The notes beneath the pieces were generated by a model. That model was given only the letters and a program-made list of their open reading frames with translations. It searched no databases and was not told the DNA's origin. Below, one piece after another: positions 43,279-62,692 of a stretch of DNA of 64,000 nucleotides. The position numbers and the translations under genes are program-made. The stretch is from an uncultured Oscillospiraceae bacterium. Lineage in GTDB: Bacteria > Bacillota > Clostridia > UBA1212 > UBA1255. Location: NCBI GenBank assembly GCA_902472555.1, contig CABROF010000001.1:108404-172403 (forward strand), read 5' to 3'. The stretch's first letter is position 1; every line of letters starts with the position of its first letter.

Positions 43279-43302
43279 GGCAAACAGGCTCCCACCCTTT
43301 CA

Positions 43303-44577
43303 TTACTCCTTTATAATCGCATCCTCGCGTTTCGGGCCGTTCGTCACGATGGTCACCGGCACTTCCAGCTCTTTTTCAATAAACTCAATATATTTTCTGC
43401 AGTTTACCGGCAGCTCGGAATAGGTGCGAATTCCGCGGATATCACATTTCCAGCCGGGCAGAGAAACCAAAACCGGTTTTGCTTGCTCCAGTTTTGCGTT
43501 CACAGGAAAATGCTTTGTCACTGCACCGTCGATTTCATACCCTACACAGACCTTTAGCTCATCCAAATATCCAAGCGCATCCAGAACCGTCAATGCCGCT
43601 TCTGTCGCGCCCTGTACACGGCAGCCGTAACGGGAAGCCACGGCATCAAACCAGCCCATACGTCTCGGCCGTCCCGTAGTCGCGCCGTATTCTCCTGCAT
43701 CGCCGCCGTTGCGACGCATAATCTCCGCTTCTTCACCAAATATCTCACTGACAAACGGTCCTGCACCCACTGCGCTGGAATAAGCCTTTACAACAGCGGT
43801 AATCCGCTGTATCTGGTGCGGCGCCACGCCAGCCCCGATCGTACCAAATCCCGCAACAGTATGCGAAGAGGTGGTAAAAGGATAAATTCCGAAATCAGGA
43901 TCCTTCAAAGAACCGAGCTGTCCTTCCAGTAAAATGTTTTTACCGGCAGCTACAGCCTCTCGGACCACTTCAAAGGTATTGCACACATAAGGCGCAATTT
44001 GCTCCCGATATCTCATCAGAGTCGCAAAAACCTCCTCCAAAGATAATTCCGGTTTATGATAAAGATGCTTCAGCAGCACATTTTTCACTTCGAGGATCCC
44101 GGTCAAGCGTTCCTTCAGACGTTCAGGGTAAAACAATTCGCATACCGGAATTCCGATTTTAGCGTATTTGTCTGAATAAAATGGTGCAATTCCAGATTTG
44201 GTTGAGCCAAACTGGCGGCCTGCCAGACGTTCCTCCTCATATTGGTCAAACAAAATATGATAGGGCATGACGATCTGCGCCCGTTCGGAAATCAGAATCT
44301 TCGGACAAATTCCCTTTTCCTTCAAATTGTTCATTTCCTTAACGAACATGTCAACATTCAAAGCCACACCATTGCCGATAATATTTGTCGTATGGCTGTA
44401 AAACACACCGGAAGGCAGTAAATGCAGTGCAAATTTTCCCCGGTCGATAATAATTGTATGTCCGGCATTTGCGCCGCCCTGAAAGCGGATAACCATATCC
44501 GATTCCGCCGCATACATGTCCGTAATTTTACCCTTTCCCTCATCGCCCCAATTGGCGCCGACAATTGCTCTAATCAT
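43303..44577 (-). CDS. purA: Adenylosuccinate synthetase
   Basis: Start at MIRAIVGANWGDEGKGK (GGAGG RBS). P-loop and GTP/IMP-binding motifs. Confidence 0.9.
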   Translation of the reverse strand: MIRAIVGANWGDEGKGKITDMYAAESDMVIRFQGGANAGHTIIIDRGKFALHLLPSGVFYSHTTNIIGNGVALNVDMFVKEMNNLKEKGICPKILISERAQIVMPYHILFDQYEEERLAGRQFGSTKSGIAPFYSDKYAKIGIPVCELFYPERLKERLTGILEVKNVLLKHLYHKPELSLEEVFATLMRYREQIAPYVCNTFEVVREAVAAGKNILLEGQLGSLKDPDFGIYPFTTSSHTVAGFGTIGAGVAPHQIQRITAVVKAYSSAVGAGPFVSEIFGEEAEIMRRNGGDAGEYGATTGRPRRMGWFDAVASRYGCRVQGATEAALTVLDALGYLDELKVCVGYEIDGAVTKHFPVNAKLEQAKPVLVSLPGWKCDIRGIRTYSELPVNCRKYIEFIEKELEVPVTIVTNGPKREDAIIKE

Positions 44578-44705
44578 AACATCCTCCATAACCTGCGCTA
44601 TGCGATTTCAGTCGCTGCATGCCGCGCGTATTTGTCACTGCTGCGGAAAGCCGCTCCGCAGAAAATTCCCCTTGGTGATACCATCCATAAATCTACAGCC
44701 GCCGG

Positions 44706-46136
44706 TCATACGTTGAGTTCTGCCTGCATGCCGAGCACTTTGGCATGGCTGGACAAAATCGTTTCTCTCACCCACTCCACATACTCCTCGGTCTGCTCCG
44801 CAGCTCTGCCGGTATAGTGCTCTGCCTGTAAAATATCAGCGGCCATTTCTTCACTCAATCCGAATGCCGCATCAGCCGTCATTCTTTGAATCAGATCATT
44901 TTCCAAGCCCTCTTCTTTCACCTGCTTGGCTGCCGCCATAGAATATAGGCGGATCTTTTCATGGAGCTCCTGCCGGTCCCCCCCCCGCAGAACCGCATCC
45001 ATTAGAATATTTTCCGTTGCCATGAACGGCAGCTCCTTCTGAATATGGGAGGCAATCACCTTCGGATATACCACCAGACCATCTGCAACGTTCAGGTAGA
45101 GGTTTAAAATGGCATCCGCGGCGAGAAATGCTTCGGGTATACTGATCCGTTTATTGGCAGAATCGTCCAGCGTACGCTCAAACCATTGCTCGGAGGCGGT
45201 CAGGGCCGGATTCAGCGCATCAATCATTACATACCGGGACAAGGAGGCAATTCGTTCGCTGCGCATGGGATTGCGCTTATATGCCATGGCAGAGGAACCG
45301 ATCTGCGTTTTTTCAAACGGCTCTTCAATCTCTTTCAGGTTCTGCAGCAGACGGATATCATTGCTGAACTTATGCGCAGATTGCGCGACACCGCTCAGCA
45401 CATTTAAAATTTGGCTGTCCAGTTTACGCGGATAGGTCTGTCCGGTTACGGCAAAAACAGTCGGATAAGACATTTTCTTCGCCACCAGCCGATCCAGCGC
45501 TTTTACCTTTTCATGATCTCCGCGGAACAGTTCCAAAAAACTGGCCTGCGTACCGGTAGTTCCCTTGGCGCCCCGCAGTTTTTTCTTTGCAAGCTGCGCT
45601 TCAATTTCTTCCAGGTCCATCACCAGATCCTGCATCCACAGCGTTGCCCGTTTTCCCACAGTGGTCAGCTGGGCAGGCTGATAATGCGTATATCCCAAAG
45701 TGGGCAGCGCTTGATACCGTTCGGCAAAATCAGCAAGCACATTCAGCACGTTCACAAGCTTGTCGCGGATCAGCTCCAGGGCTTCATGCATAATAATGAT
45801 ATCCGTGTTATCGCCGACATAGCAGGAGGTTGCGCCGGAGTGAATAATCGGTTTTGCCAGCGGACACTGCTGGCCATATGCGTACACATGCGACATTACA
45901 TCGTGCCGGACTGCTCGTTCTCTTTCTTCCGCCACCTCATAATTGATGTCGTCTGCATGTGCTTTCAGTTCTGCAATCTGTGCCTCCGTAATGGGAAGTC
46001 CCAGTTCTTTTTCACTCTCAGCCAAAGCAATCCACAGTCTGCGCCATGTCCGGAATTTTTTGTCCGGTGAAAATAAAAACTGCATTTCCTTGCTGGCATA
46101 TCTGGAATTCAGCGGACTTTCATAGCTGTCTTTCAT
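44706..46136 (-). CDS. purB: Adenylosuccinate lyase
   Basis: 476 aa fumarate-lyase-fold ADSL (signature ..GSSAMAYKRNP..). Confidence 0.9.
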   Translation of the reverse strand: MKDSYESPLNSRYASKEMQFLFSPDKKFRTWRRLWIALAESEKELGLPITEAQIAELKAHADDINYEVAEERERAVRHDVMSHVYAYGQQCPLAKPIIHSGATSCYVGDNTDIIIMHEALELIRDKLVNVLNVLADFAERYQALPTLGYTHYQPAQLTTVGKRATLWMQDLVMDLEEIEAQLAKKKLRGAKGTTGTQASFLELFRGDHEKVKALDRLVAKKMSYPTVFAVTGQTYPRKLDSQILNVLSGVAQSAHKFSNDIRLLQNLKEIEEPFEKTQIGSSAMAYKRNPMRSERIASLSRYVMIDALNPALTASEQWFERTLDDSANKRISIPEAFLAADAILNLYLNVADGLVVYPKVIASHIQKELPFMATENILMDAVLRGGDRQELHEKIRLYSMAAAKQVKEEGLENDLIQRMTADAAFGLSEEMAADILQAEHYTGRAAEQTEEYVEWVRETILSSHAKVLGMQAELNV

Positions 46137-46191
46137 AAATAACCTCCAATAAGCTCCATTTTAAAATGTACGCATTCAAGTTCTGCAGAAT

Positions 46192-47553
46192 TCAGTACGG
46201 ATATTTTCCGGTAAAGCATCCGTCGCAATATCCGCATTTAATATTCGGCACGATCTCATGCAGACGCGAAACCGGCAGATACCCGAGAGAATCCGCTCCG
46301 ATCATCCGGCGAATTTCCTCCAGCTCATGATTGCAGGCCAGCAAATGCTCCTTGGAGGGGACATCTGTGCCAAAATAGCACGGCCAGGTAAAAGGCGGTG
46401 AACTGATTCTCATATGTACCTCTTTTGCACCGGCTTCCTTCAGCATATCTACTAAGTTTGCACAGGTAGTTCCGCGCACAATGGAGTCATCCACCATGAT
46501 AATCCGTTTATCCTTTACCGTATCGCGCAGTACATTGATTTTCAGCCGCACAGCAGTGGCGCGCTGCTCTTGTGTGGGCTGAATAAAGGTCCTTCCTACA
46601 TAGCGGTTAATTACAAGTCCCTTTCCATAAGGAATTCCGCAGGCCTGTGCATAACCGATTGCAGCATCAATTCCAGAGTCCGGGACCCCGATTACCAGAT
46701 CCGCATCAACAGGAAATTCCTCGGAAAGTATTTTACCCGTTAATTTACGGGCCTCGTGTACGCTCATTCCTTCTATAATTGAATCCGAGCGTGCAAAATA
46801 GATATACTCGAATATGCAGATACGTGATCTTCCGGCAGGCGGACAATTGTCCCGGATGGACCGCAGACCGTCCTTGTCTATAATCACAATTTCACCGGGA
46901 TCGATATCCCGAATATATTCTGCCCGCACGGTGTCCAGCGCGCATGTCTCAGAGGCGATTACATAAGAGTTATTGATTTTTCCCAGACAAAGAGGGCGCA
47001 TTCCCTGCGGGTCACGGCAGGCCATCAGTTTCTGCGGGCTCATCATGACCAACGAATAGGAACCCTTCAGTTCCTTCATCATTTCCGCCAATGCAGTCTC
47101 TGCACGGCCTGTTTTCAGTCTGGCACGGGCAAGAAGGTGCATCATAATCTCTGTATCTGTCGTGGTCTGGAAAATGGCACCGGCTAATTCCAATTCATGC
47201 TTTAACTCCATGTAATTGGACAACTGGCCGTTTACAGCCAGTGCAAGCTGCCCTTTAATATAACGGCTCACTAATGGCTGTGCATTCAGTACCCCGGTTT
47301 CCCCGGTGGTTGCATAACGGACGTGCCCGATGGCCATTTTACCATCCAGCGCATCTAAATCCCGGTCATGAAATACCTCACTGACCAACCCCACATTTTT
47401 ATGCAGTGTAATAATGCGATCTTTATTTACCGCAATTCCACAGCTTTCCTGTCCTCTGTGCTGAAGCGCGAATAACCCTGCATAAGTCATTCTCGCACAG
47501 TCAAATCCATCATTATCATATATAGCAAATACGCCGCATTCTTCCCGAAGCAT
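46192..47553 (-). CDS. purF: Amidophosphoribosyltransferase
   Basis: N-terminal Cys nucleophile (MLREECGVFAI), PRTase domain, C-terminal Fe-S cysteines. Confidence 0.9.
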   Translation of the reverse strand: MLREECGVFAIYDNDGFDCARMTYAGLFALQHRGQESCGIAVNKDRIITLHKNVGLVSEVFHDRDLDALDGKMAIGHVRYATTGETGVLNAQPLVSRYIKGQLALAVNGQLSNYMELKHELELAGAIFQTTTDTEIMMHLLARARLKTGRAETALAEMMKELKGSYSLVMMSPQKLMACRDPQGMRPLCLGKINNSYVIASETCALDTVRAEYIRDIDPGEIVIIDKDGLRSIRDNCPPAGRSRICIFEYIYFARSDSIIEGMSVHEARKLTGKILSEEFPVDADLVIGVPDSGIDAAIGYAQACGIPYGKGLVINRYVGRTFIQPTQEQRATAVRLKINVLRDTVKDKRIIMVDDSIVRGTTCANLVDMLKEAGAKEVHMRISSPPFTWPCYFGTDVPSKEHLLACNHELEEIRRMIGADSLGYLPVSRLHEIVPNIKCGYCDGCFTGKYPY

Positions 47554-47707
47554 TCTTCTGGCCTCCCTTTCCGGATTCTACCGGTCCTGCGATTTGATTC
47601 ATTTACTCCTTTGCGCGCATGCAGCGTTTTCCAGGAGTCCATAAAATAGTTCTGCCGATGATCACAAGTTCCTATTTCTATTTTAATTTTACATCTTGAT
47701 TCTAATT

Positions 47708-48421
47708 TTACAGTCCGATTCTGGTGAAAATCTCTTTATATGCTTCTTCAACATTTCCCAGATCCCGCCGGAATCTATCCTTATCCAGCTTTTCTTTGGT
47801 TTTGGCATCCCACAGACGGCATGTGTCAGGAGATATCTCGTCAGCCAATATGATTTCGCCGCCCAATGCAGGGCACCTTCCGAATTCAATTTTGAAGTCA
47901 ACCAAAATAATCCCGATTTTTGCGAAAAACTCCTTCAGCACCTCATTAACTGCAAAGGTTGCGGCAGCAATATGATTCAGCTCCTCTTGTGTGACCAAGC
48001 CTAATGCCATGGCATGATAGTCATTAATTAGGGGATCCCCCAGCGCATCGTTTTTATAGCTGTACTCTAAGATCGTACACTTCAGCGCGGTTCCTTCCGG
48101 TACGCCGTACCGCTTTGAAAAGCTGCCTGCTGCAATATTGCGCACGATCACCTCCAGCGGTACAATTTCCACTCTGCGCACAGCAGTCTCCCGATCACTC
48201 AGCTCTTCGATAAAATGTGTTTTGATCCCCTTACTCTCCAAAACCCGAAAAATCAAATTTGACATTCTGTTATTGATAACGCCTTTTCCTACAATTGTTC
48301 CTTTTTTCTGTCCGTTAAATGCCGTAGCATCATCTTTATAATCTACAATGTAAACATTTTCATCCTCTGTTTTATATACTTTTTTTGCCTTTCCCTCATA
48401 AAGCATTTCCCGTTTTTCCAT
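47708..48421 (-). CDS. purC: SAICAR synthetase
   Basis: Start at [16 protein letters not shown] with an AAAGGAG RBS. Canonical PurC. Confidence 0.9.
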
Positions 48422-48573
48422 CTCAATATCTCCTTTCCTGAAAACGAATAGGCAAGCTCCTACCCTTGCGTTAATAAACAGGTTCCTACCCTTAAGCAAG
48501 CTCCTACCCTGCGTTAGTTAAACAAGACCCTACCCTGTTACAGCACAGGGTAGTCCCTGCCGTGAATGGACTG
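48422..48573 (-). promoter_or_regulatory. purC leader and intergenic region: four direct copies of AGGGTAGGRNC (two ~44-bp units) plus an 8-bp hairpin just after the guaA-paralog stop
   Basis: Plus-strand copies ..CTCCTACCCT.. at about 48457, 48483, 48501 and 48527, spaced 26/18/26 nt. Hairpin CTACCCTG-ttacagca-CAGGGTAG at 48530-48553. Read directly from the sequence. Confidence 0.6.
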
Positions 48574-49863
48574 TTACTCCCACTCTATGGTTCCGGTGGG
48601 CTTAGGCGTCAAGTCATATAAAACCCGGTTCACACCTTTTACTTCAGAGGTGATACGGACTGTAATCTTCTGAAGCAGAGAAAATGGGATGTCTGCAACA
48701 GAAGCGGTCATAGCATCCACCGTGTTTACGGCACGGAGTATCACCGGCCAATCAAAAGTACGGGCATTTTCTCGTACCCCGACGGACTTGAAATCCGGGA
48801 TTGCAGTAAAATACTGCCATACACGACCCTCCAAGCCTGCTTTGGCAAACTCTTCCCGCAGAATTGCATCTGATTCCCGAACAGCCTCTAATCGTTCTCT
48901 GGTAATTGCGCCCAGGCAACGCACACCAAGGCCGGGTCCCGGAAAAGGCTGCCGATATACCATATTATCCGGAAGACCGAGCGCTGTTCCACAAGCCCGC
49001 ACTTCATCTTTGAAAAGCATTTTTAACGGTTCTACCAATTCAAAATCCAGGTCCTCCGGCAGGCCGCCCACATTGTGGTGGCTTTTTACCGCTTTAACGG
49101 TCTTTGTACCGGATTCAATAATATCCGGATAAATGGTCCCCTGTGCAAGAAATCGAATACCCTCCAATTTTCTGGCTTCCTCTTCAAAAACACGAATAAA
49201 TTCTGTACCGATGATTTTCCGCTTTTGTTCCGGATCCGCCACATTAGACAATTTATCCAGAAAACGGTCTGAAGCATCCACATATACCAAATTTGCATCC
49301 ATTTGATTGCGGAACACATCCACCACCTGCTCCGGCTCTCCCTTGCGAAGAAGGCCGTGATTTACATGGACGCAGGTCAGCTGCTTTCCGACCGCACGGA
49401 TAAGCAGCGCTGCTACCACGGAAGAATCAACCCCGCCGGACAGCGCAAGCAGCACCTTTTTATTTCCCACCTGACGGCGCACCAGCTCTACCTGATCGGC
49501 AATAAAATTTTCCATATTCCAATTTGCCTCTGCTCCGCATTTATCAAACACAAAACGGGAAAGAATCCGTTTGCGCTCTTCGTCCGGCTGCGGCCATGGC
49601 GCCTCTCCGTTATGGTCAGCACAAAGGATTGGACACCCGGACTCATAAACAGCCCGAGAAGCATCAATTGCTGCCCCGTCAACGATCCGATTCGGACCGC
49701 CGTTGAGAATAATTCCTTTGACATTCGGAAGCGCTGCCAGCGCTTCCGCAGAGAGATCATGGGGGTGAATTTCTGAGTATACGCCTAAAGCACGAACCTC
49801 CCGGGCAATTTTTGGGTTTTCCTCACTTCCTAAATCGAGGATAAGGATCATGTCTTGTTTCAT
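48574..49863 (-). CDS. GMP synthase paralog: intact ATP-pyrophosphatase and dimerisation domains, but a truncated, catalytically dead GATase domain
   Basis: 429 aa. P-loop [11 protein letters not shown] and the conserved GuaA C-terminus ..PTGTIEWE are present. The N-terminal ~110 aa align to the first half of the GATase domain, but the nucleophile elbow G-x-C-x-G is replaced by CADHNGE and about 90 aa including the His/Glu region are missing, compared directly with the canonical guaA at 51246-52799. Confidence 0.75.
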   Translation of the reverse strand: MKQDMILILDLGSEENPKIAREVRALGVYSEIHPHDLSAEALAALPNVKGIILNGGPNRIVDGAAIDASRAVYESGCPILCADHNGEAPWPQPDEERKRILSRFVFDKCGAEANWNMENFIADQVELVRRQVGNKKVLLALSGGVDSSVVAALLIRAVGKQLTCVHVNHGLLRKGEPEQVVDVFRNQMDANLVYVDASDRFLDKLSNVADPEQKRKIIGTEFIRVFEEEARKLEGIRFLAQGTIYPDIIESGTKTVKAVKSHHNVGGLPEDLDFELVEPLKMLFKDEVRACGTALGLPDNMVYRQPFPGPGLGVRCLGAITRERLEAVRESDAILREEFAKAGLEGRVWQYFTAIPDFKSVGVRENARTFDWPVILRAVNTVDAMTASVADIPFSLLQKITVRITSEVKGVNRVLYDLTPKPTGTIEWE

Positions 49864-49881
49864 ACATCCTGCTCCTTTCTA

Positions 49882-51072
49882 TCAGCTGGTAAAATTATCA
49901 AAATACCCCTGTATTAAAATTACCGGAGTTCCCTTATCTCCGGATCCGCTGGTCAGATCGCTGAGTGAGCCAATAAGGTCCGTAAGCCGCCGGGGTGTCG
50001 TTCCCTGAGAAGCCATATCGCCTAAAAGGTTGTCCTTTTTTTCCTTGATCCGGACTTCAATTGCTTTTTGCAGCGCCTCTCCGGATAAAGCGGCGAAATC
50101 GTTATCCGCTAAATACTTCAGCTTGATTTCATTCGGGGTTCCTTCTAAGCCGGGCGTATTGGCAACTGAAACACATGGATCCGCCAGCTCCCATATTTTA
50201 CCTACAGGATCTTTGAAGGCACCATCCCCGTAAACCATAACTTCTACATGCCGGCCGGTCTGCTGCAAAATCTGCTTCTGGACATCCAACACCAAATCCA
50301 CACAGTTCTGCGGAAAGAGCTTGATTTTGTCCTCCGTAGATTTATTAGAGCCCAAAAGACCGAAATCTTGATTAAAGCCGCTGCCCTCCACCGGCGCATT
50401 CAGAATCTCATCCAGGCCATATACGCGTTCGGCACCGGCAGTTTTTAAAATGCGCTTTGTTCTGGCACGGGAATGAATGTCACAATGAAGTACATTTTTT
50501 GTATACTCTAATATACGCCGAGCATCATTGGCAAAAACGATTTCACATTCTGCACCGGACTGACGGATCAAATCCCCATAGTATTGTACGTAATCCACAC
50601 CGGTAAAAGGATGTTTATTTTCTCCGAACAATGCTCTGTACTGACTGAGCGTCAGCAGGTCCGTATACGGATTAATGCCTGCTTCATCAAGCTGGTCCAA
50701 TGTCACTAACTCATTTCCGACCTCATCACTCGGGTAGCTGAGCATTAAAATAACTTTTTTCGCACCTTGTGCAATACCGCGGAGACAGATTGCAAAACGA
50801 TTTCTGGAAAGAATCGGAAAAATGACGCCGATGGTTCCGCCGCCTAATTTGGACCTTATGTCAGCAGCAATCGCAGAAACCGAAGCATAATTCCCCTGCG
50901 CACGCGCAACCACGGATTCCGTGATGGAAATGACGTCCTTGTCCCGCAGACCAAAGCCCTCCTGTTCCGCTGCCTCCAATACGCTTCTGACGACAATCTG
51001 CGCTAAAGGATCACCCTCCCGGATGATCGGGCATCGAATTCCTCTTGATACGGTACCAACCTTTCGTTCCAT
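49882..51072 (-). CDS. CofE-like gamma-glutamyl ligase family protein (F420-0:gamma-glutamyl ligase fold) with internal insertions
   Basis: 396 aa. N-terminal PIIREGDPLAQIV..KDVISITESVVARAQG and C-terminal ..GDKGTPVILIQG match conserved CofE/FbiB ligase motifs (KEGDDLAELI, ..VVISKAEGR, GIPVVLVRG). GGGAGG RBS. Assigned from memory of the family, not from a search. Confidence 0.5.
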   Translation of the reverse strand: MERKVGTVSRGIRCPIIREGDPLAQIVVRSVLEAAEQEGFGLRDKDVISITESVVARAQGNYASVSAIAADIRSKLGGGTIGVIFPILSRNRFAICLRGIAQGAKKVILMLSYPSDEVGNELVTLDQLDEAGINPYTDLLTLSQYRALFGENKHPFTGVDYVQYYGDLIRQSGAECEIVFANDARRILEYTKNVLHCDIHSRARTKRILKTAGAERVYGLDEILNAPVEGSGFNQDFGLLGSNKSTEDKIKLFPQNCVDLVLDVQKQILQQTGRHVEVMVYGDGAFKDPVGKIWELADPCVSVANTPGLEGTPNEIKLKYLADNDFAALSGEALQKAIEVRIKEKKDNLLGDMASQGTTPRRLTDLIGSLSDLTSGSGDKGTPVILIQGYFDNFTS

Positions 51073-51245
51073 AGCAACCTCCCATGTCGCCGTCGGCGAC
51101 TGTAATCATAATAAAAAAGCATGCTTTTTATAAATTCAGCGGATCTCAGCGCATTTTCTGTAAATCACAGTGCGAACCCAATCTGACGCTACACCTCGTG
51201 CGCCGTAATACGCCGCAGATTTTCTTGCTGAAACGCGGTGAATCC

Positions 51246-52799
51246 TTACTCCCACTCGATCGTAGCCGGCGGTTTACTGGTAACATCGTACACAATTCGA
51301 TTCACAGACGACACCTCGTTCACAATTCTGGAAGAAATCCGCTGCAGTACATCATACGGCAGCCGCGCCCAATCAGCCGTCATAAAATCAGTCGTAGTGA
51401 CTGCCCGCAGTGCAATCGTATAGTCATATGTACGCGCATCCCCCATTACACCTACGCTCCGCATATTGGTCAGAACCGTAAAATACTGACTCAGCTGATC
51501 CTCGAGTCCTGCGTTTGCGATTTCTTCCCTGAAAATGCCGTCCGCTTCCCTCAAAATATCCAATTTTTCCTTTGTGATATCTCCGATAATCCGGACTGCC
51601 AATCCAGGGCCCGGGAACGGCTGCCGCATAACGATTTCCCGGCTGAGTCCCAGTTCAAATCCGCAGCGCCGAACTTCGTCTTTGAATAAATCACGCAGAG
51701 GCTCTACCACCTCCCGAAATTTGATATATTTCGGAAGGCCCCCTACATTGTGATGCTTTTTGATCACTGCGGAATTTCCGGCGCCGCTTTCTATGACATC
51801 CGGGTAGATTGTCCCCTGAACAAAATAGAAATCTTCCGCGTTTCCGATTCGCTCTGCTTCATCTTGGAAAACTTCTATAAATTCACGCCCGATAATGACG
51901 CGCTTTTCCTCAGGATCGGAGACGCCGTCCAGCTTGTCTAAAAATCGCTGCTGTGCATCTACTACAATTAAATTTGTCTCAAACTGATTACGGAAAACAT
52001 CTTCGATCTGCGCACGTTCTCCTTTTCTCATAAGTCCGTGATCCACAAAAATACAAGTCAGATTTTTGCCCACTGCTTTGCTTACAAACGCAGCTGCTAC
52101 AGCAGAATCTACTCCGCCGGATAAAGCCAGCAGGACCTTTTGTTCACCGAATTTTACCCGCAGTTCCTGTATCGTTTTTTTAACAAAACCGCTCATAGTC
52201 CAATCGCCGCTACATTTGCACACATCATATAAGAATCGTTTCAGCATGGCGGCGCCATTTTCTGTATGTTGGACTTCAGGATGGAACTGAACGCCGATGA
52301 TTTTACCGTCTGCACTTTCCATCGCGGCAATCGGACATCCTTTTGAAGCGGCACGTACAACAAAACCTGCCGGTACGCGCTCCACATAATCCGTGTGGCT
52401 CATCCAGCAGGTATTGGTTGCATCTGCATCTGCAAATATTGTGCAGCCTTTATCCAGCCGCACTGCTGTCATACCGTATTCTTTGTTTGCGGCTCCGCCC
52501 TCGGCTACAGTTCCGCCCAGCAGGTATGAGATCAACTGCATTCCGTAACAAATTCCTAACACCGGACACCCGAGCCGCAGGAGCTCCGGTTCACATTTTA
52601 ATGAATCTGCCGCATATACGTTTGCCGGTCCGCCTGTCAGGATGATTCCTTTGGGTTTTTTCATCCGGATTGCCTCTACGCTTGTGCTGCAGGGAAGCAC
52701 TTCACAATATACATGATTTTCCCTGATACGACGCGCAATCAACTGACTGTACTGCGCCCCGAAATCAAGCACGATCACAGTTTCCACATTTGCCTGCAC
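51246..52799 (-). CDS. guaA: GMP synthase (glutamine-hydrolysing), canonical
   Basis: 517 aa. GATase with the GICYGMQ nucleophile and FHPE; P-loop SGGVDS; C-terminal dimerisation domain. Confidence 0.9.
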
Positions 52800-53079
52800 A
52801 AATCACCACTCCTGACTGATAATCTGGCCCGCGGCGCACATACATTCTATACGGCACGGATTGCTGCATGTCTTTCATTTTGCCGGCTCGGTTCAATCCC
52901 CCGCCTCGGAATCACACGATAAAAGCTGTGCGATTCATTTACACTATATCATCAACCGCGCCATAGGTAAAATTGATATTCATTATGATATTCATTTATT
53001 TTACTTATATACAAGCAACGTGCAAGCAGGGTCGGGACCTGTTTATTTCCGCAGCGCCCCTCATGCTGCGATCTATCCT

Positions 53080-54339
53080 TTATCCGATAAAACGGGGTAA
53101 TACTGATCCCCCGTACGGAATTACCCACACCTTCGCATTCGGTCCATGCTTTGCTAAAGAATCACGGAACGCTTGCTGGGCATTGCTGTACGGTTTGAGA
53201 AAAATATTTTGTACTAAATCCGGCTCTAACTCTGAAACGAGTAAAATGTCCGCATTTTCCAAAACCATACCGATTGCAGCGGCTTTATGACCTCCAAGCT
53301 GGAAGTCCCGACCGATCCGTTCAACCATTTCCTGCGGACAGGCTGCTTCTGTCATCCATTCTTCAAATACTTTTTCACCTAAACCCTCTTTGCAGGAACC
53401 GATCAAAATAATGGTCCCACCCTTTTTAACAGCATATTTTGCATTGTCTAATGCCTTTTGTGTCTGATATAAATTAATGTCCTTCGGCGCGCCTCCTTGG
53501 GAAACAATCACAATATCAGCCTGCTGTGAAATCTCCTTCATATACAGCTGATCCAAAAACTTAGCTCCCACCCTGTGTGCCTCTATAGGATCACCCGCAA
53601 CCGCTTGAACAATTTTTTTATGTTCATCTAAAACCACATTAAGGATAAAATCAATTCCGCATATTTTTCCGGCCTCTTCTATGTCTGCCCGAACAGGGTT
53701 GGAGCCTATTTCGCCTGCACATGCAAGAGGATTAACCATATGTCTGTGGTTGCACTGTATTGCTTCCCTGGTCGAGACTCCAGGCATAATTGCTTTGGCC
53801 CCGCCGCTGTATCCGGCAAAATAGTGATATTCAATATTCCCTAAACAGATCCGGCGGTCTGCACTGGCCACAGTGCGTGTAATGTCCACCGGAGTGCCCC
53901 GTGATGTGACACCCATTCGAATGCAATCTTCCGGGTCGCTGTCCACTGCCCTGATTTGTTTCAGGATGTCTGGTCCGGCTAATTTTTCCATTTCACTCCG
54001 GGTCTGTTTTCGATGACTGCCAAGACCAAACACCAAAGTAACATCAGCAAGGTTGACAGCAGCAGCCTTTAGTTCCTCTAAAATTGCCGGCATTACAAGC
54101 GCAGTCGGCATAGGTCTTGTAATATCGCTTGTTATAATTGCAATTTTTTCTCCAGGCCGTACAATCTCCCTGAGCCGGGCCGTGCCGATAGGACTTTTTA
54201 ATGCATTGCGCACGACATCCGCGTCCTTCGGGATTGATATCGGGTTTGGTAAAATAGCTCCTAATAGATTATTCTGTGGTATATAGACCTCCTGTGTTCC
54301 ATTACCGAATCCAAATTCAAATTTTAACTGATCCTCCAT
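53080..54339 (-). CDS. larA: LarA-family nickel-pincer-cofactor-dependent racemase/epimerase (lactate racemase-like)
   Basis: 419 aa. DUF2088-like N-terminal domain plus LarA C-terminal domain (..GLGSHRKQT.., ..SQGGAPKDINLYQTQKAL..). AGGAGG RBS. Confidence 0.75.
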   Translation of the reverse strand: MEDQLKFEFGFGNGTQEVYIPQNNLLGAILPNPISIPKDADVVRNALKSPIGTARLREIVRPGEKIAIITSDITRPMPTALVMPAILEELKAAAVNLADVTLVFGLGSHRKQTRSEMEKLAGPDILKQIRAVDSDPEDCIRMGVTSRGTPVDITRTVASADRRICLGNIEYHYFAGYSGGAKAIMPGVSTREAIQCNHRHMVNPLACAGEIGSNPVRADIEEAGKICGIDFILNVVLDEHKKIVQAVAGDPIEAHRVGAKFLDQLYMKEISQQADIVIVSQGGAPKDINLYQTQKALDNAKYAVKKGGTIILIGSCKEGLGEKVFEEWMTEAACPQEMVERIGRDFQLGGHKAAAIGMVLENADILLVSELEPDLVQNIFLKPYSNAQQAFRDSLAKHGPNAKVWVIPYGGSVLPRFIG

Positions 54340-54426
54340 TTTACAAGATAACCTCCTGTTAATAATATAAGTCCCTACCCTTTATAGAAGCCAAATAGAA
54401 GCCCGCGGAAAATGTGTATTAAAATT

Positions 54427-54681: not shown

Positions 54682-54737
54682 TTTAAACATCCTCCGACTT
54701 AATATTAGCCTGTTTTTCAGGCCCTACCCTAAAAATA

Positions 54738-55229
54738 TTAATAGTCCTTTACAAAAAGAGCTCTTATGTAGCCGCGTTCTTCCGAGGTGGATTGAATATA
54801 GAAACCGCAGCCATAGTAAAATCGAACTAGATCCTTGTATTTTGAGGCTGTATGCAATCTGGCCTGTTTGACAGATTTTGAATACAGCAATTTGTCAATT
54901 AAATTCATAAAAGATTTTCCGATTCCGATGTTTTGATAGCCGGAGCGAACACCGAAGCGGCTCACGTATGCGATTCTGCTGTTTTCATCAATATCAACGC
55001 GGATGCTGCCTACCGGGATACCGTCGACAAAGGCAATATAAACATATTTTGATTCAATATCTTTTAAAATAGCAGCATCGGTTTCTTCTAATGCCTCCAA
55101 TTTTACAGCATCCTCATGTAAACCGGTATCTGTCATATATTTTCTGAACGCATCAAGCATAACTGTTTTGATTGCTACTACATCATTCCAATCTGCCATT
55201 GCGCGCCGAATCACAAAGGAATACTCCAT
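54738..55229 (-). CDS. GNAT-family N-acetyltransferase
   Basis: 163 aa; acetyl-CoA-binding motif context (..RSGYQNIGIGKSFMNLI..). Confidence 0.7.
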   Translation of the reverse strand: MEYSFVIRRAMADWNDVVAIKTVMLDAFRKYMTDTGLHEDAVKLEALEETDAAILKDIESKYVYIAFVDGIPVGSIRVDIDENSRIAYVSRFGVRSGYQNIGIGKSFMNLIDKLLYSKSVKQARLHTASKYKDLVRFYYGCGFYIQSTSEERGYIRALFVKDY

Positions 55230-55243
55230 GCTATCGTCCTCCG

Positions 55244-56161
55244 TTATCCCATTAGTTTTACCATAACCGCTTTTTGTGCATGCAGACGATTTTCTGCTTC
55301 GTCAAATACCACAGACTGCGGGCCGTCTATCACTTCCGAAGCAACCTCCAACCCTCTGTATGCCGGAAGACAATGCAAAAATATTGCGTTTTTTGCCGCC
55401 TTGCCGAAAAGCTCTGTATTAATCTGATAATCAGCAAAAATTTTACTTCTTTTTTCTTTTTCCGCTTCCTGTCCCATGCTCGCCCATGTATCTGTGTATA
55501 CTACATCAGCATCCCGGATAGCAAGGGTGGGGTCTTGCGTCATTAGCACAGTTACATTGGTCTCTTTGGCTGTCTTCTGTGCCTCTTCAACAAAACGCGG
55601 ATTGCACGTATAATGTTCCGGAGAGGCAATTGCTATATGCATGCCAACCTTTGTACAGCCATGCAGCAAAGAATGTGCCATATTATTTCCATCGCCTATA
55701 TAAGCCAATTTCAGACCTTTCAGCTTCTTTTTATGCTCATATATCGTTTGCAGATCCGCAAGCACCTGACAAGGATGTTGATCGTCTGTTAATCCGTTTA
55801 TCACCGGGATCGTTCCCTGTTCCGCAAACTCTTCGACGTCACTTTGCTTAAAGGTGCGAATCATAACCCCATCCAAGTATCTTGACAGCACCTTCGCCGT
55901 ATCTGATACGGATTCCCCCCGTCCAATCTGAATATCATGATTGCTTAAAAACAGCGCTTGGCCGCCGAGCTGATACATGCCAACCTCAAAGGAGACACGC
56001 GTACGTGTGGAGGATTTTGAAAAAATCATACCTAAGCTCCGACCCTTTAGATATTGCGTGGTATTTTTATTCTTAAGATCCTTTTTGAGTTTTATTGCTA
56101 ACTCAATCAATTCAAAAATTTCATCAGAAGACAAATCATATAAACTTAACAAATGCTGCAT
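55244..56161 (-). CDS. argF: Ornithine carbamoyltransferase
   Basis: STRTR carbamoyl-phosphate-binding motif, HPCQ, HCLPA. Start placed at MQHLLSL with an AGAGGTG RBS. Confidence 0.9.
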   Translation of the reverse strand: MQHLLSLYDLSSDEIFELIELAIKLKKDLKNKNTTQYLKGRSLGMIFSKSSTRTRVSFEVGMYQLGGQALFLSNHDIQIGRGESVSDTAKVLSRYLDGVMIRTFKQSDVEEFAEQGTIPVINGLTDDQHPCQVLADLQTIYEHKKKLKGLKLAYIGDGNNMAHSLLHGCTKVGMHIAIASPEHYTCNPRFVEEAQKTAKETNVTVLMTQDPTLAIRDADVVYTDTWASMGQEAEKEKRSKIFADYQINTELFGKAAKNAIFLHCLPAYRGLEVASEVIDGPQSVVFDEAENRLHAQKAVMVKLMG

Positions 56162-56223
56162 ATCTGCACCTCTTTCTTTCCTCATCAATAATTTTTATTG
56201 CGAATCTAACCATCCGAACAATA

Positions 56224-57459
56224 TTAGATTGTAATTTTACAAAGCACATTTATAAAAGCGTCCACATCCTTTTCTGTAATAATGAGTGGAGGCAATATTC
56301 TTAAAGTATTCGCGCCGACACTTCCCACCAGCCAACCTTCATTAAATAAGGCATCTTTGATACGGCCGACAATTGGCTTTTCAAATTGAATCGCAACCAT
56401 TAAGCCTGCATTTCTGATTTCAGCAATCCTGGACCTGCAGTCTTTATATGCAGGGTCGGAACTTCTTTCTGCAGGAATTTCTCCATTCCTGACTTTTTCT
56501 AATTGTAAGCGAAAATAGGTTCCTACCTTCTGCGCATTTTCAGGCAGCTGCTCGTTTATAATTGTGCGAACAGAGGCTAAACCAGCGGCACAGGCAAGTG
56601 GATTTCCGCCGAAAGTACTTCCGTGGTCCCCTGGTTCAAAGCAGTCTGAAACAGGCATTTTTGCGCATACACAGGCAATCGGAAAGCCGCCCCCCAAAGC
56701 TTTTGCCAAGGTAAAAATGTCCGGCTCTACACCCAAATATTGATAGCCGAAAAGATGTCCGGTTCTGCCAAACCCGGTCTGAACCTCGTCAAAGATCAAT
56801 AAAAGGCCCAGTTCGTCGCATAGCTTTCGAACTTTTGCTGCGTATTCACGTGTTAATGGATATACACCGCTTTCTCCCTGTACCGGTTCAAGCATGACAG
56901 CACAGGTATTTTCATTAATAGCCTCTTTTAAAGCTTCATAATCATTAATCGGAACATGACGGAACCCTGGGGTTAAAGGCGTATAAAGCTTTTTATATTT
57001 TTCCTGTCCGGTAGCGGTTGCAGTTGTTAACGTACGTCCGTGAAATGAATTTTCAAGACAAATAATTTCGTTTTTTTCAGCTTGATTTTGTTTATGAAAA
57101 AATGCGCGCGCCAGTTTTAATGCCGCCTCATTTGCCTCAGCTCCGCTATTGCAGAAAAATACTTTGTCTGCACATGAGAATTGACACAGTAGCTGTGCCA
57201 ATTCGGTCTGTTTTTCGATATAATACAGATTCGAACAATGTATCAGCTTGCCGGCCTGTTCTGTAATCGCATTTACTACAGATGGATGGCAGTGTCCCAG
57301 TGCACAAACTGCAATTCCGGCAAAAAAGTCAACATACTTTTTCCCATCTATACTGTACAGATAAATTCCCGCCCCATGATCAAAACAGACCGGATTTCTT
57401 TTTCCAAATGTGTTCATATAATAATGCGCATCCAGATCTATAATTGTATCCAAATTCAT
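56224..57459 (-). CDS. argD: Acetylornithine aminotransferase
   Basis: 411 aa class-III PLP aminotransferase; DEVQTGFGRTG with the PLP lysine region. Confidence 0.9.
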   Translation of the reverse strand: MNLDTIIDLDAHYYMNTFGKRNPVCFDHGAGIYLYSIDGKKYVDFFAGIAVCALGHCHPSVVNAITEQAGKLIHCSNLYYIEKQTELAQLLCQFSCADKVFFCNSGAEANEAALKLARAFFHKQNQAEKNEIICLENSFHGRTLTTATATGQEKYKKLYTPLTPGFRHVPINDYEALKEAINENTCAVMLEPVQGESGVYPLTREYAAKVRKLCDELGLLLIFDEVQTGFGRTGHLFGYQYLGVEPDIFTLAKALGGGFPIACVCAKMPVSDCFEPGDHGSTFGGNPLACAAGLASVRTIINEQLPENAQKVGTYFRLQLEKVRNGEIPAERSSDPAYKDCRSRIAEIRNAGLMVAIQFEKPIVGRIKDALFNEGWLVGSVGANTLRILPPLIITEKDVDAFINVLCKITI

Positions 57460-57487
57460 AGTTAATCAGCCTCCTACCCTTCTATCT

Positions 57488-58426
57488 TTAAATATCTTCG
57501 TTTTCAAAATATTTTACTTTTTCTTTCATGATCATTGTTCCGATACCTTTATTGGTAAATATCTCGAGCAGCAGACAATGTGGAATCCGGCCATCAATAA
57601 TGTGCGTCCGGCCAACACCCTTTTGCAATGCGTCAACACAGCCCAGCACTTTTGGAATCATACCTCCAGTTATAATTCCAGCAGCGATTAAAGCGTACAC
57701 TTCATCAATCGTTAAAATATACAGTAATTCTCCGGTCTGGGTATTCCGGACACCTTCAATGTCTGTGAGAAGCATTAATTTTTCAGCTTTCAGCGCTGCG
57801 GCGATTTCACCGGCCACGGTGTCGGCATTTATGTTATAGCTTTCTCCATTCGGGCCTATACCGATTGGCGCAATAACAGGTATGTAGGCATCATTTGACA
57901 CTAACTCCACCAGATGGGTATTAACGGTAGTAATTTCTCCCACATAACCAATATCAACTGCTTTTCCATCTACATTTTCGTAATGGCGTTCGCATTCTAT
58001 AATTTTACCATCAATTCCGCAAAAACCAACAGCCATCCCACCCTTGTCGTTTATATGAGATACGATCTCCTTATTCGTTTTTCCCACAAGAACCATCTGG
58101 GCAATCTCCATCGTAAATTTGTCTGTAACACGCAACCCGTTAATCCATTCACTTTTTATATTATATTGCGATAATGCTTTACTGATATCAGGGCCTCCTC
58201 CGTGTACCACCACCGGATTCATCCCAATATATTTTAATAATACGATATCCTGTATAACAGAATTTTTTAACTCCTCATTAATCATCGCATTTCCGCCATA
58301 TTTAATAACAACGGTTTTTCCATTCAGTCTTTGTATATAGGGCAGCGCCTCAACCAAAATCTCCGCCTTTTTGATAATATCGCCGATGGTCTGGCCCGCA
58401 GCCACAATTTGATTTAAATCAGTCAT
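57488..58426 (-). CDS. argB: Acetylglutamate kinase
   Basis: ..[13 protein letters not shown]..; amino-acid kinase fold. Start taken at MTDLNQ (the track ORF extends to 58519). Confidence 0.85.
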
Positions 58427-58628
58427 ATCTGCCAAAAGTCCTTTCCAAAATTCTAAATAGCTATACCCACTGGATCCAGCGCGTCTCATTATACACTTTA
58501 ATGCATAATTATGCAACAAAAAAACTCTAAAGGATAAAAAATTTGAAATAAATAGAGTTATGAACTAAAAATAAAGTTCAGCAGTCAAAAAATATTCATT
58601 TTCAAATATTAAAATATACCTTCAAAGC

Positions 58629-59582
58629 TCACATATCAGCCTTGACTTCATATTGTCTCGGAAGCTGAAACATAATCCGCATATTTTCAATTGCTTGTGT
58701 TGCCGCACCTTTACCCAAATTATCAAGGCAGGAGTTTATATATGCATAGCCTTCTTCCACCCGAATTTTAACTGCAATTTTATTTGTATCATTAACATAA
58801 GCCGTACCGTATTGTTCCTGACCGTCCCGGACAATATAAACTAAATCATCCGGAACATATATTTCCTGAAACGCAAGCTCCAGCCTTTCCTGTGCAGACT
58901 CTGGTGAAAGTGCAGCCAGTTCCTTTTTCAGCCTAATACGAATATTTGTGTTAATCCCTTTAAATACCGAACGAAGGACAATCGGAGTAAAATTCACACG
59001 CAGTCCGGTATAACGTTCCATCTCCGGTACATGCTTATGTTTCCTGCCATATGAATAGGCAATATCATTTTCAACCCGCTCTGCACTTTTCCTTGCCCCT
59101 GAGTTCCCTGAGGTTGATACAATCGTTGCCTCCCCTTCCACAAGGTTTTTCACAGCATATAACGGAATAATTACAGATGTCGCATAGCAGCCGGGGTTTG
59201 CAATTAATTGGGCATTTGCGATTTCCTTTTTATATAAAGCAGGCATACCATACACTGCCTCTTCAAGACGCTGAGGACATAAATGTTTAAGACGATACCA
59301 TTTCTCAAAATCACATTGATTCAACCGAAACGCACCGCTCATATCAATGACGCGCACGCCCTCCAGGAGTAAGCGATCCGCCATCACCATAGAGATATCG
59401 TCCTTTGTAGCCAGAAAGACAAGATCACAATCTGAGCTCCTACCTTGTGATTCAGTTGAATTTTGAAGATAGCATATATCGATTTCAGCATCTTGAATTT
59501 TATGCAAATTTCTATGTATTTCTTGCCCCACCATTCCTGTGTATCCTACAATACCCACTTTAATAGAAGTTTTATTTTGCAT
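58629..59582 (-). CDS. argC: N-acetyl-gamma-glutamyl-phosphate reductase (short ArgC/LysY-type)
   Basis: 317 aa. N-terminal Rossmann fold VGIVGYTGMVGQE and the catalytic Cys in ANPGCYAT. Confidence 0.8.
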   Translation of the reverse strand: MQNKTSIKVGIVGYTGMVGQEIHRNLHKIQDAEIDICYLQNSTESQGRSSDCDLVFLATKDDISMVMADRLLLEGVRVIDMSGAFRLNQCDFEKWYRLKHLCPQRLEEAVYGMPALYKKEIANAQLIANPGCYATSVIIPLYAVKNLVEGEATIVSTSGNSGARKSAERVENDIAYSYGRKHKHVPEMERYTGLRVNFTPIVLRSVFKGINTNIRIRLKKELAALSPESAQERLELAFQEIYVPDDLVYIVRDGQEQYGTAYVNDTNKIAVKIRVEEGYAYINSCLDNLGKGAATQAIENMRIMFQLPRQYEVKADM

Positions 59583-60067
59583 TTTAAATCATCCTCCTGT
59601 GGTCATTTTCCGCAATTACTATTTTATAGCTTTTCTAATATTTAAAAGCATTTGCAGCATTCAATCAAACAAGGCCCCACCCTTTATTGATTGTCCTGAT
59701 TATACATTACATTGCACTTTATCGTCAAACAGTTATGCAGTTACAGTTAAAATTATAAAATTAAAAATTATACAGTTATGCACTTGTATGAAATCTATAC
59801 AGTGAAATACAGTTATAATAGTTAAATTATATATGAGAGTTATATCGCCGCTAATATCAAATTTAAATTCGAAACGCAATACGAATCTGCAGATATCAGA
59901 CCTTATGGACAGCTAAGAGTCTGAGAGGGCAAAATATAAAAAAATAGTTCCAGTCCTATTTAGTTCTTTTTTATAATATAACTTATTTTTCAGTAAATCA
60001 TGGACTATGGTAAAATTTCAGCAGGATTCAAATCTTGTTGTCTGTTAAAATACAAACAGATGCTAAA

Positions 60068-60100
60068 AGTCCCCTGCTTTTCAGCAAGGGGACTTTTAGT
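60068..60100. terminator. Intrinsic terminator downstream of gdhA (works in either direction)
   Basis: AAAAGTCCCCTGCttttcaGCAAGGGGACTTTT: GC stem flanked by A- and T-runs. Confidence 0.6.
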
Positions 60101-60142
60101 GATCTTCAAATAGTTATGAAATAAGAAAAATGCTAAATTTAT

Positions 60143-61480
<1,338 letters not shown>

Positions 61481-61635
61481 CTAAACAACACCCCTAAACC
61501 TGAATTAACTAAACTCTATTGTTCAACGAACTTTATTATTTTACCATATGCCTTCCTGACACGCAACATAAAAATTACAAAAATTTGAGTATATAAACCA
61601 TGAAATTATTTTTAATTAACTGTAAAATCCACCTT

Positions 61636-62472
61636 TTAATATAAAAAAGAAAATAATTCCCCGGGAAATGGTCTGTATCTATTTTTAAAAGGTTTATAAG
61701 AAAATTGATTTACGATCTGAATAATAACTGTGTAGCTTAAGCCCAAAATTCTTGCCGTCTGTTTCATTTTTATTCCCATAAACGACAGTATTTTCAATAT
61801 CACATAATCTCTTTTGCCGCGTGGCATTTGTGTAATCTCATAGGGATGATCAACCTGTGCAATTTGCTTGATCAGCTTCACCGCTTTTATATCAGAAATA
61901 TGTTTTACCAAATCCTGCTCAAATTCATTTCTTTCATTCTCCGATATCTGGGTATCATATATAATAAGTTCATCTTTATTAAAAAGTGACAGCAGATACG
62001 ATGTATTAACAATTTCATCATTTTCGTTTAAATAGCCGCGATAGCTGCACCAAGTGTAATCCTCCGGCATGCGAATTCCGTTGATATCCAAAGGATTTTT
62101 ATGTATATAATTTACTGCTGCCTTCAGGTATTTGCTGTCATTAATTGGAATACTGGTAAAATGTCTTTCAAATAATCCGCCGCTCCGGTCATATTTTAGA
62201 GAATAATAAGTTGCATAGCTGCATAAAATTCTCTGCATAAGTTTTGAAAGGGGTTCTGTACTTTCAGTATTGTGAATCTCAATAATTAAATGTATATGAT
62301 TATTCATAAACACATAGCTTATCAAGTTAAATTTACATATCTCCCTATATTTTTTTATACAATTGAAAAGCCTTGCAAAATCTTCTCTTGATTCGAAAAT
62401 ATTTTGCTTATTCAGCCCTCTTGCAATCACGTGATAAATTCCCAATGTACTGACTTGTCGGACCTTTCTCAT
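61636..62472 (-). mobile_element. IS200/IS605-superfamily Y1 (HUH) transposase, RAYT-like long form
   Basis: 278 aa. HUH motif HIHLII, catalytic-Tyr context AVNYIHKNP, C-terminal HTH (ARILGLSYTVI). Sits in an AT-rich intergenic island. No second IS gene and no obvious terminal hairpins were found. Confidence 0.55.
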
Positions 62473-62692
62473 TTATCCATTCGCCTTTCAAGAATACTCT
62501 TTTTATATATTTTATCATATATTCCATAAAATTCAATTTGTTTCTTTCGACCTAATATCCATTTTTTCGACTTTTCCCTTCAAATAACAGTAAGCTCCCA
62601 CCTTAATCATCTCCAACAAACATGGAAATAGATCACTATTGTATGAAGGATCGGAGTCTTGTTATACTCCGATACATAGGAGGAAGATAATC

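Follow-up and report, generated by a model that had tools for sequence, protein, structure and literature searches.

We analysed a 64-kb stretch of DNA (hereafter the window) from an uncultured, spore-forming gut Clostridia species, in which an 18-base element (MAGGGTNGGRRCYTGTTT; consensus AAGGGTRGGRRCYTGTTT) recurs far above the level expected by chance. In our judgement, the balance tips somewhat towards this motif being the core of a lineage-specific short interspersed repeat family, akin to repetitive extragenic palindromic (REP) and terminal inverted repeat (TIR) elements, which is tied to a TIRYT-like Y1 gene in the same region, has been expanded by slippage, and plays incidental roles in gene expression. 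Comparison with related loci showed a family apparently confined to this one species, and the resemblance of the motif to hairpins flanking homologous genes suggests that it is probably linked to the nearby domesticated Y1 (HUH) transposase.

The literature on REP-type repeats with domesticated Y1 transposases is substantial for Proteobacteria and Cyanobacteria and very thin for Firmicutes. Y1 proteins of subclass 2.1, which bear a helix-turn-helix (HTH), have been reported without a dispersed partner repeat; here, a gene that resembles these lies inside a dense, sharply bounded field of related 18-nt repeats. The locus may be useful for studying the local origin and spread of such elements, their co-option for expression, and recognition by subclass-2.1 Y1 proteins. 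It also calls for caution in annotation: the copies should not be read as regulon operators or riboswitch-like leaders.

The repeat field and its copies

A position weight matrix (PWM) was built from 13 good copies and scored in bits. The portion of the genome covered amounts to ~81 kb, comprising the 64-kb window, 7.5 kb to its right (contig L101) and 9.6 kb to its left (L258). Within the window, 18 consensus matches with at most three mismatches were observed against 0.44 ± 0.57 expected, and the PWM returned 28 sites at ≥12 bits against 1.6 expected, so that the recurrence and enrichment first noticed in a sequence-only reading of this DNA are real. At ≥14 bits, the window and L101 together hold 30 copies in a 35.9-kb domain, which begins at position 35660, not at 43288 as that reading had it, and runs to ~7 kb beyond the window end. 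The PWM scan found zero copies in the left 35.6 kb of the window and none in the next 9.6 kb (L258). The domain limits are sharp, with 30 copies in ~36 kb against none in at least 45 kb of adjoining core genes (murB, hprK, rapZ, and others). More than 20 independent contigs from metagenomes and metagenome-assembled genomes match the window DNA at >99% identity with the junction at 35.6 kb intact, and the window is therefore not chimeric.

The copies are concentrated between genes: 14 lie in 5.1 kb of intergenic DNA (2.8 per kb), every one scoring ≥19.5 bits, and 16 lie on both strands of 30.8 kb of coding sequence (0.52 per kb), which amounts to a 5-fold intergenic enrichment. The minus strand carries 21 of the 30 copies and the plus strand nine. 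The earlier description of nine leaders, all copies being oriented with the downstream gene, was selective on both counts, given the 16 copies inside coding sequences and the nine on the other strand, among them the intergenic ones at 35660, 37908, and 53027.

Motif columns A2, G4, T6, G8, and G9 are invariant, and C12 and T14 nearly so. The variable columns 10-11 abolish the GGAAC or GGAG core in many copies; some copies contain GGAAC, whereas GTGGGGC and GTCGGGA variants have no SD core, and those of the GTGGGGC kind lack GGA and GGAG. Intergenic copies extend to ~26 nt, (G)ATA-AAGGGTRGGRRCYTGTTT-ATTAAC, with ATTAAC(G) on the 3′ side. The motif contains a pseudo-dyad, AGG-N7-CYT. In the corresponding hairpin, (C)AGG-N7-CYT(G), 68.5% of cells are paired versus 68.8% in shuffles, without compensatory excess. 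Because this pairing is no better than in shuffles, what is conserved is the primary sequence.

From related species, 80 purC loci were scanned (1.13 Mb; PurC as much as 86% identical), and three matches at ≥14 bits turned up, which is the chance level. The purC leaders of these relatives carry ordinary promoters and lack the motif, and no comparable repeat replaces it in the 80 loci. Within the species, motif copies are identical across ~20 strain contigs (99.1–100% identity). The sole motif-linked difference concerns a 29-nt unit (AAACAGGAACCGACCCTG plus 11 nt), which is single in the window (37898-37925) and tandemly duplicated in several strains (L096 7668-7714). If the family is mobile, its mobility is slow on the strain timescale.

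The minus strand, which is G-rich, carries almost all genes of the window. In the right-hand third, the encoded products and genes, read from the left, are a PgeF-like protein, an AP endonuclease, a GH25 lysozyme, gerAB-AC-AA, hisH, purA-B-F-C, a truncated guaA′, a CofE-like protein, guaA, larA, a TSCPD protein, a GNAT protein, argF-D-B-C, gdhA, a Y1_Tnp protein (278 aa), and lon. The copies outside genes are the following:

35660..35677, plus: left-most copy, CAGGGTGGGAGCCTCTTT (24 bits); intergenic, in the divergent spacer between the pgeF-like and AP-endonuclease genes
37908..37925, plus: copy CAGGGTCGGTTCCTGTTT; intergenic, 3′ of gerAB, within the 29-nt unit
39203..39220, minus: copy at the gerAC/gerAB junction (23 bits)
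43282..43299, minus: copy before hisH (27 bits), 3 nt 5′ of the ATG; fills 18 of the 24 nt of the purA-hisH spacer
48450..48537, minus: four-copy head-to-tail array between guaA′ and purC; start-to-start distances 26/18/26 nt, 44-nt double unit
48530..48553, minus: head-to-head hairpin CTACCCTG-tgctgtaa-CAGGGTAG, then GGTCTTGTTT; terminator-like
53027..53044, plus: intergenic copy between larA and guaA (25.5 bits), on the strand opposite to the genes
54365..54382, minus: copy in the larA leader, 25 nt 5′ of the ATG; a separate Shine-Dalgarno (SD) sequence follows
54714..54731, minus: degenerate copy TAGGGTAGGG-CCTG in the TSCPD leader; 1-nt deletion, 3.8 bits ungapped
57464..57481, minus: copy before argD, 4 nt 5′ of the ATG; fills 18 of the 28 nt of the argB-argD spacer and supplies AGGAGG
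59667..59684, minus: copy in the argC 5′ leader, at about +8 to +25 after the promoter TTGACG-18-TATAAT (59728-59699)

The instances named in the sequence-only reading hold up strongly for hisH, the purC array, larA, argD, and argC. The TSCPD instance is the copy with the deletion, the one by the transposase (62588) is weak at 10 bits, and gdhA shows no match (-3.5 bits).

The arrangements seen are singletons, the head-to-tail array, inverted pairs forming long hairpins, and the 29-nt tandem duplication. The hairpin at 48530-48553 is a partial inverted copy that pairs with the 5′ part of the first purC-array copy. A perfect 18+18 palindrome, AAGGGTGGGAGCCTGCTG-aaaaa-AAGCAGGCTCCCACCCTT, lies at L101 220-260 and consists of GTGG, a 9-bp stem, and CCAC (a “double foot”); this inverted pair is the sole GTGG-stem-CCAC structure. 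The palindrome stands behind a small open reading frame of 47 aa (MGCFGCNDDCIIWIILILIVLAVLGNGCGCGSNNGCGCGCNNNGCGC; L101 55-198, ~7.3 kb right of the window end), which is rich in Cys and Gly and has a hydrophobic centre. A pair-pattern scan returned a human-gut metagenome contig, L187, as the single relevant locus among the matches listed; its copies, an array of four and an inverted cluster of 2+1, are all intergenic. A tie of L187 to the window species via its AEC-transporter protein was not established, just one 3-kb contig having been found. The other matches listed were mostly unrelated tandem repeats or palindromes. Unrelated near-perfect palindromes, CAGGGTCGGACCCTG, flank pilin-like genes in low-GC environmental contigs (L162 7219-8104, L245 2825-3710, and others) and surfaced only through their fit to the loose scan pattern. 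The loose pair-pattern scan of viral contigs gave unrelated tandem repeats only, and BLAST of the array against plasmids and phages gave no match.

Inside genes, the copies are distributed as follows:

39551..39568, minus: copy in gerAC, sense (16.4 bits)
41847..41897, minus: two copies (41847, 41880) in the gerAA N-terminal extension; frame 0, QGGDLF and QGRNFA
42174..42191, minus: copy in the gerAA N-terminal extension (26 bits); frame 0, QGGALF
43093..43110, minus: copy in hisH (QGRVLC); abuts a 10-aa insertion relative to a solved HisH
53407..53711, both strands: three copies in larA (53407 minus, 53558 minus, 53694 plus); no indel relative to solved homologues
55339..55540, both strands: two copies in argF (55339 minus, 55523 plus); no indel
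56451..56530, both strands: inverted pair in argD; the 56451 (plus) copy lies in a lineage-specific loop insertion, NGEIPAERSSDPAYK
63351..63566, both strands: two copies in lon (63351 plus, 63549 minus); more lon copies lie just beyond the window end

When synonymous codons were shuffled, each protein and its codon usage being kept and sites at ≥14 bits counted, the right-hand genes had 16 coding sites against 1.7 ± 1.0 expected, and the left-hand genes had 0 against 0.2. Five coding and three intergenic copies are antisense to transcripts, and copies are also located 3′ of genes. The peptides at several copies are ones that we take to be conserved (LarA EIGSNPV, ArgF TQDPTLA and RGLEV, Lon KGRVLP), and one lon copy presumably lies in the linker before the protease domain, going by the domain organisation of Lon. 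Other coding copies coincide with lineage-specific in-frame length changes in ArgD, HisH, and the GerAA N-terminus. Neither solved structures nor the ten closest homologues have the ArgD loop insertion that holds the 56451 copy, and the species-specific extension of GerAA carries three in-frame copies encoding QGG(A/D)LF and QGRNFA. In-frame intragenic REP copies in protein loops have been published (PMC3733652; PMC6006769).

The GerAA extension comprises ~290 N-terminal residues of the protein (40521-42659), lies outside the Pfam GerA domain, and is unaligned in relatives; gerAA is called 70 aa shorter in some assemblies. The GC content at third codon positions (GC3) drops from ~0.52 (1-37 kb) to 0.31–0.41 (larA through lon and beyond). 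The genes with intragenic copies are mostly of low GC3, though the motif itself is GC-rich.

The Y1 gene, its homologues, and the neighbouring genes

The gene that we associate with the repeat, and the motif-like sequences on its two sides, are located as follows:

61636..62472, minus: 278-aa Y1 (HUH) transposase-like gene, class 2/TIRYT-like; NHIHL, YIHKNP, C-terminal HTH
62582..62605, minus: degenerate motif-like sequence TAAGGTGGGAGCTTACTGTTATTT, 5′ of the Y1 gene (10 bits)
61614..61637, minus: similar sequence AAAGGTGGATTTTACAGTTAATT, abutting the Y1 stop codon in the same orientation; similarity judged by eye

The Y1 gene is intact, with the HUH motif NHIHL, the class-2 Y---NP signature YIHKNP, and a C-terminal HTH-like tail; HTH_3 and HTH_23 matches were obtained in one homologue only (P0190, E ~0.01–0.02). 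On the NCBIfam model REP_Tyr_transpos, the window protein scores 57 bits, below the cut-off of 80. It forms one 99% cluster among 5.8 billion proteins, the next relative being 35% identical, and the gene is single-copy and at the same position in every strain contig. Judged by these comparisons, it behaves as a domesticated single-copy gene and not as an active insertion sequence, and an assignment to IS200/IS605 was rejected on the single cluster and the distant next homologue. A second, fragmentary Y1_Tnp gene beyond lon (L102 5865-6153, L103 165-618) has no motif copies around it; it was rejected as a paralogue, having no nucleotide similarity to the intact gene.

Homologues of the Y1 gene in three other organisms lie among housekeeping genes and have hairpins on both sides, the downstream hairpin abutting the stop codon. 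These hairpins, GGGACA-AGGAGC(C)/AGGAACC-TGTCCC, flank the homologues on L252, L262, and L263 and not the window gene; L252 and L262 cannot be counted as independent cases in this comparison. The hairpin loop and the start of the 3′ arm, AGGARCCTGT, are identical to motif columns 7-16. On motif columns 7-17, chosen post hoc, this stretch scores 12.6–12.8 bits, with ~0.001 expected per flank. TIRYTs are subclass-2.1 TnpA_Y1 proteins with a C-terminal HTH and are flanked by GGGGWSAS-type repeats (PMC3733652; PMC6006769), which the homologue hairpins fit. Three independent short-read contigs with a Y1 homologue (L252, L253, and L254) all have their first bases (position 1-30) in the GGGACAGGAACCTTGTCCC hairpin, 66 nt 5′ of the gene, a hint that the genome in question contains this hairpin more than once and that assemblies break at it.

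Published work places the action of Y1 enzymes on the lagging-strand template (PMC5027513; PMC6006769). Judged by GC skew, this template is the minus strand here, which carries 70% of the copies as well as the Y1 gene. Under the repeat-family reading, the copies would have been seeded at the replication fork by a Y1 enzyme working on single-stranded DNA, and such fork-linked seeding could have placed 21 of the 30 on the G-rich template strand. Replication slippage may afterwards have expanded them locally, and cis-preferential action might keep them clustered within tens of kilobases of the Y1 gene. Effects on expression would be side effects of position, namely the SD at hisH and argD, the terminator-like hairpins arising from inverted pairs, and the 5′ end of the argC leader.

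As for the neighbouring genes, guaA occurs twice, as a full copy (51246-52799) and as a 429-aa truncated copy (48574-49863), and the CofE/F420-ligase-like gene separates the two. The interval from guaA to purC is taken up in some strains by a conjugative element (NikA-like, TrbL_2, PrgI; L006 1-1302, L106 11279-12382), which has its junction at the 3′ end of guaA (...GAGTGGGAGTAA). This end of guaA is evidently a hotspot for integration, and guaA′ and the CofE-like gene look like a remnant. The motif was considered as the attachment site of this element and rejected, the junction being GAGTGGGAGTAA at the guaA 3′ end. A recognisable promoter of purC itself was not found between the terminator-like hairpin and the SD. 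The lone hisH (42640-43278; IMP_synth_hisH, 217 bits) is flanked by purA and gerAA, other his genes being absent from the vicinity, and a hisH match is absent in relatives with purCFBA-gerA synteny (10-kb flanks around purC). A tRNA/tmRNA scan found none.

Competing explanations

Several observations weigh against the repeat-family reading. Singletons are non-palindromic, and the hairpin that defines REPs is weak here (3–5 bp) and shows no compensatory change. The adjacent core genome is free of copies over at least 45 kb, unlike in typical genome-wide REP families. Some ten of the coding copies fall in protein segments that align without indels and in which codon choice favours the motif; they are not explicable by simple insertion and require point-wise drive, short-patch conversion, or DNA-level selection. 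The reading that we favour leaves the confinement to a single domain and the copies embedded in codons without an explanation. On either side of the Y1 gene itself, the motif-like sequences are all degenerate and in direct orientation (10 bits), and the match to the homologue hairpins spans only the 3′ two-thirds of the motif, on columns picked after the fact. The strand bias is inseparable from gene orientation, the minus strand being the coding strand of almost every gene. Among the ~20 strain contigs, no insertion or excision polymorphism was seen, one tandem duplication aside.

The sharp boundary and the indel-free codon-embedded copies keep alive an explanation at the DNA level, which we regard as unlikely but worth keeping in view, namely that the copies are clustered sites bound by a sequence-specific protein, perhaps the HTH of the Y1 protein, and mark a chromosomal domain with a centromere-like, organising, or fork-targeting role, and that selection acts on the DNA even within codons. 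The excess of coding copies on both strands (16 versus 1.7 expected), the conservation of the primary sequence with its pseudo-dyad and no covariation, the identity of copies across strains, and the likeness of the tandem arrays to iterons all agree with it. However, L187 shows the family in what may be a separate context, no candidate for a partition or organiser gene was seen in the window, and the intergenic enrichment, the insertion-linked copies, and the duplication polymorphism fit a repeat element better. A more specific form, to which we give a slightly smaller chance, holds that the copies are a selected, domain-restricted recognition-site array, written even into codons, plausibly for the HTH-bearing Y1 protein, whose gene lies midway along the domain, and that they mark ~36 kb or more for a fork-linked or chromosome-organising function; if true, it would give subclass-2.1 TIRYT proteins a cellular role. 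Spread by biased uptake or gene conversion, as with the DNA uptake sequence (DUS) of Neisseria and the uptake signal sequence (USS) of Haemophilus, would also account for coding copies arising through codon choice without indels, for an inverted pair forming a terminator-like hairpin, for a conserved core with AT-rich extensions, and for species specificity. DUS and USS density is roughly uniform, at ~1 per kb across the core genome, whereas the neighbouring core genes are motif-free here, and known uptake sequences do not characteristically form head-to-tail arrays; we consider this explanation quite improbable, and classification as a DUS/USS was rejected on the copy-free core genes.

Explanations that place the motif in gene regulation fare differently depending on whether they act on RNA or on transcription initiation. 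As an RNA-level cis element, recognised by an RNA-binding protein or a small RNA or serving as a standby site or extended SD, the motif would co-regulate pur, arg, his, and lar mRNAs. The bias of 21 in 30 towards the sense strand, the copies before hisH and argD and in the argC, larA, and purC leaders, the GGAG exposed in a weak hairpin loop, and the G-U-compatible Y at position 13 are in line with this. At hisH and argD, no SD-like sequence is available other than the GGAG/AGGAGG of the motif (GGGAG at hisH), which stands 10 nt 5′ of the ATG, so the occasional SD role proposed by the sequence-only reading is real there; it is local and incidental to the copy's position, and it did not extend elsewhere. 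Antisense copies, GTGGGGC-type variants lacking GGA or GGAG, pairing no better than shuffled, absence from the equivalent leaders of relatives, and copies in gerA, lon, and the GH25 region, which misfit a metabolic regulon, all speak against an RNA element, and we rate it as improbable. No Rfam match was obtained at the gathering threshold or at E ≤ 1 across 35-64 kb, and there was no covariation, which together argue against a structured regulatory RNA; in the pur, gua, arg, and his leaders (43303-59760), no purine or ZTP riboswitch, T-box, or other Rfam family was detected. Nor does an extended complement of the anti-SD, put forward earlier as a deflating explanation, account for the motif: AGGAG occurs in A-type copies only, the GTGGGGC and GTCGGGA variants lack an SD core, and the distance of leader copies to start codons varies from 3 to 84 nt, many copies not being near starts (the 16S 3′ end used was the Firmicute consensus).

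The motif as a transcription-factor operator or an extracytoplasmic function (ECF)-type promoter element of an amino-acid and nucleotide biosynthesis regulon draws on the copies upstream of purC, argC, larA, hisH, and argD, on GGAAC in some copies, and on direct-repeat arrays that could bind a multimeric regulator. Position largely refutes it, and we give it hardly any weight. At hisH and argD, the motif ends 3–4 nt from the ATG and therefore cannot be a promoter; the argC copy lies just downstream of a strong sigma-70-type promoter, and thus occupies a leader RNA or operator position, not a promoter; no -10 partner is conserved at fixed spacing; and relatives' orthologous leaders lack the motif. 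A sigma-70-type promoter inside the purC array (7/12 matches by eye) was not reported by a promoter scan and was dropped, and DnaA-box, parS, KOPS/SRS, Chi, TnrA, CtsR, and ECF consensuses were rejected on sequence or geometry. As a general explanation, the operator, ECF promoter, and translational enhancer offered by the sequence-only reading are not supported, given the intragenic, antisense, and 3′ copies, the absence from relatives' leaders, and the variability of columns 10-11. Its fourth option, a REP-like sequence tied to a RAYT-type transposase, is the best supported, short of strict REP membership.

Comparison with known repeat systems

REP and REPIN elements with their RAYT (TnpA_REP) genes, reportedly described by Nunvar in 2010 and by Bertels and Rainey in 2011, are one system that the window resembles. 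Like them, the window family consists of many short, species-specific, mainly intergenic repeats containing GT[AG]G (2.8 versus 0.52 per kb; absent from the 1.13 Mb of relatives), which occur as singletons, clusters, and inverted dimers, including the “double-foot” GTGG...CCAC palindrome, with occasional in-frame copies in protein loops and a single-copy, vertically fixed Y1 HUH gene nearby. For published REPs, GT[AG]G tags including GTGG variants are on record, as are “double-foot” palindromes and an arrangement in dimers or clusters (Di Nocera 2013, PMC3733652; Quentin 2018, PMC6006769). In contrast to REPs, in which GT[AG]G lies 0–2 nt 5′ of a stable stem of at least 5–7 bp, the window singletons are not palindromic and carry GTRG or GTCG inside the loop of a 3–5 bp pseudo-stem, not at its foot. 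Head-to-tail arrays dominate here, whereas head-to-tail dimers are rare in REPs; the copies are far more degenerate than typical REP 16-mers, and the family is confined to one domain in the ~81 kb covered. In a REPtron, copies of the dispersed repeat, usually inverted, flank a single-copy Y1 gene with HUH and Y motifs; the Y1 gene of the window has no clear inverted copies around it. With singletons that lack palindromic form and a gene without clear bracketing copies, the family falls short of strict REP membership and is a variant, not a member.

The TIRYT/TIRtron systems resemble the window system in the protein, with its length of 278 aa, class-2 Y---NP signature, and C-terminal HTH, and in the GGGGACA... 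hairpins flanking the homologues of the window gene, which fit GGGGWSAS. Some TIR families are moderately abundant and occur in dimers or clusters (PMC3733652; PMC6006769). Subclass 2.1 genes, however, have been reported as generally lacking dispersed REP-like partners (PMC3733652; PMC6006769), the flanks of the window gene have lost the GGGACA...TGTCCC hairpin, and the dispersed motif has only AGGARCCTGT in common with it.

Two further systems share traits with the window family. The STAR elements of Staphylococcus aureus are likewise short GC-rich direct repeats in an AT-richer Firmicute genome. They form arrays between genes, separated by AT-rich spacers and growing or shrinking by slippage, are found in mRNA leaders, and are stable within lineages with lineage-specific abundance; however, their spacers are ~40 nt against 0–8 nt here, and they have not been reported inside genes or as inverted pairs (PMC3532100). 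Homology with STAR was rejected, there being no common order of sequence blocks (PMC3532100). Rickettsia palindromic elements (RPEs) and intragenic REPs share the in-frame copies in loops and linkers (ArgD, HisH, GerAA N-terminus, and probably the Lon linker). RPEs are insertions of 100–150 bp, whereas the unit here is 18–30 nt, with about ten coding copies present without any change in length.

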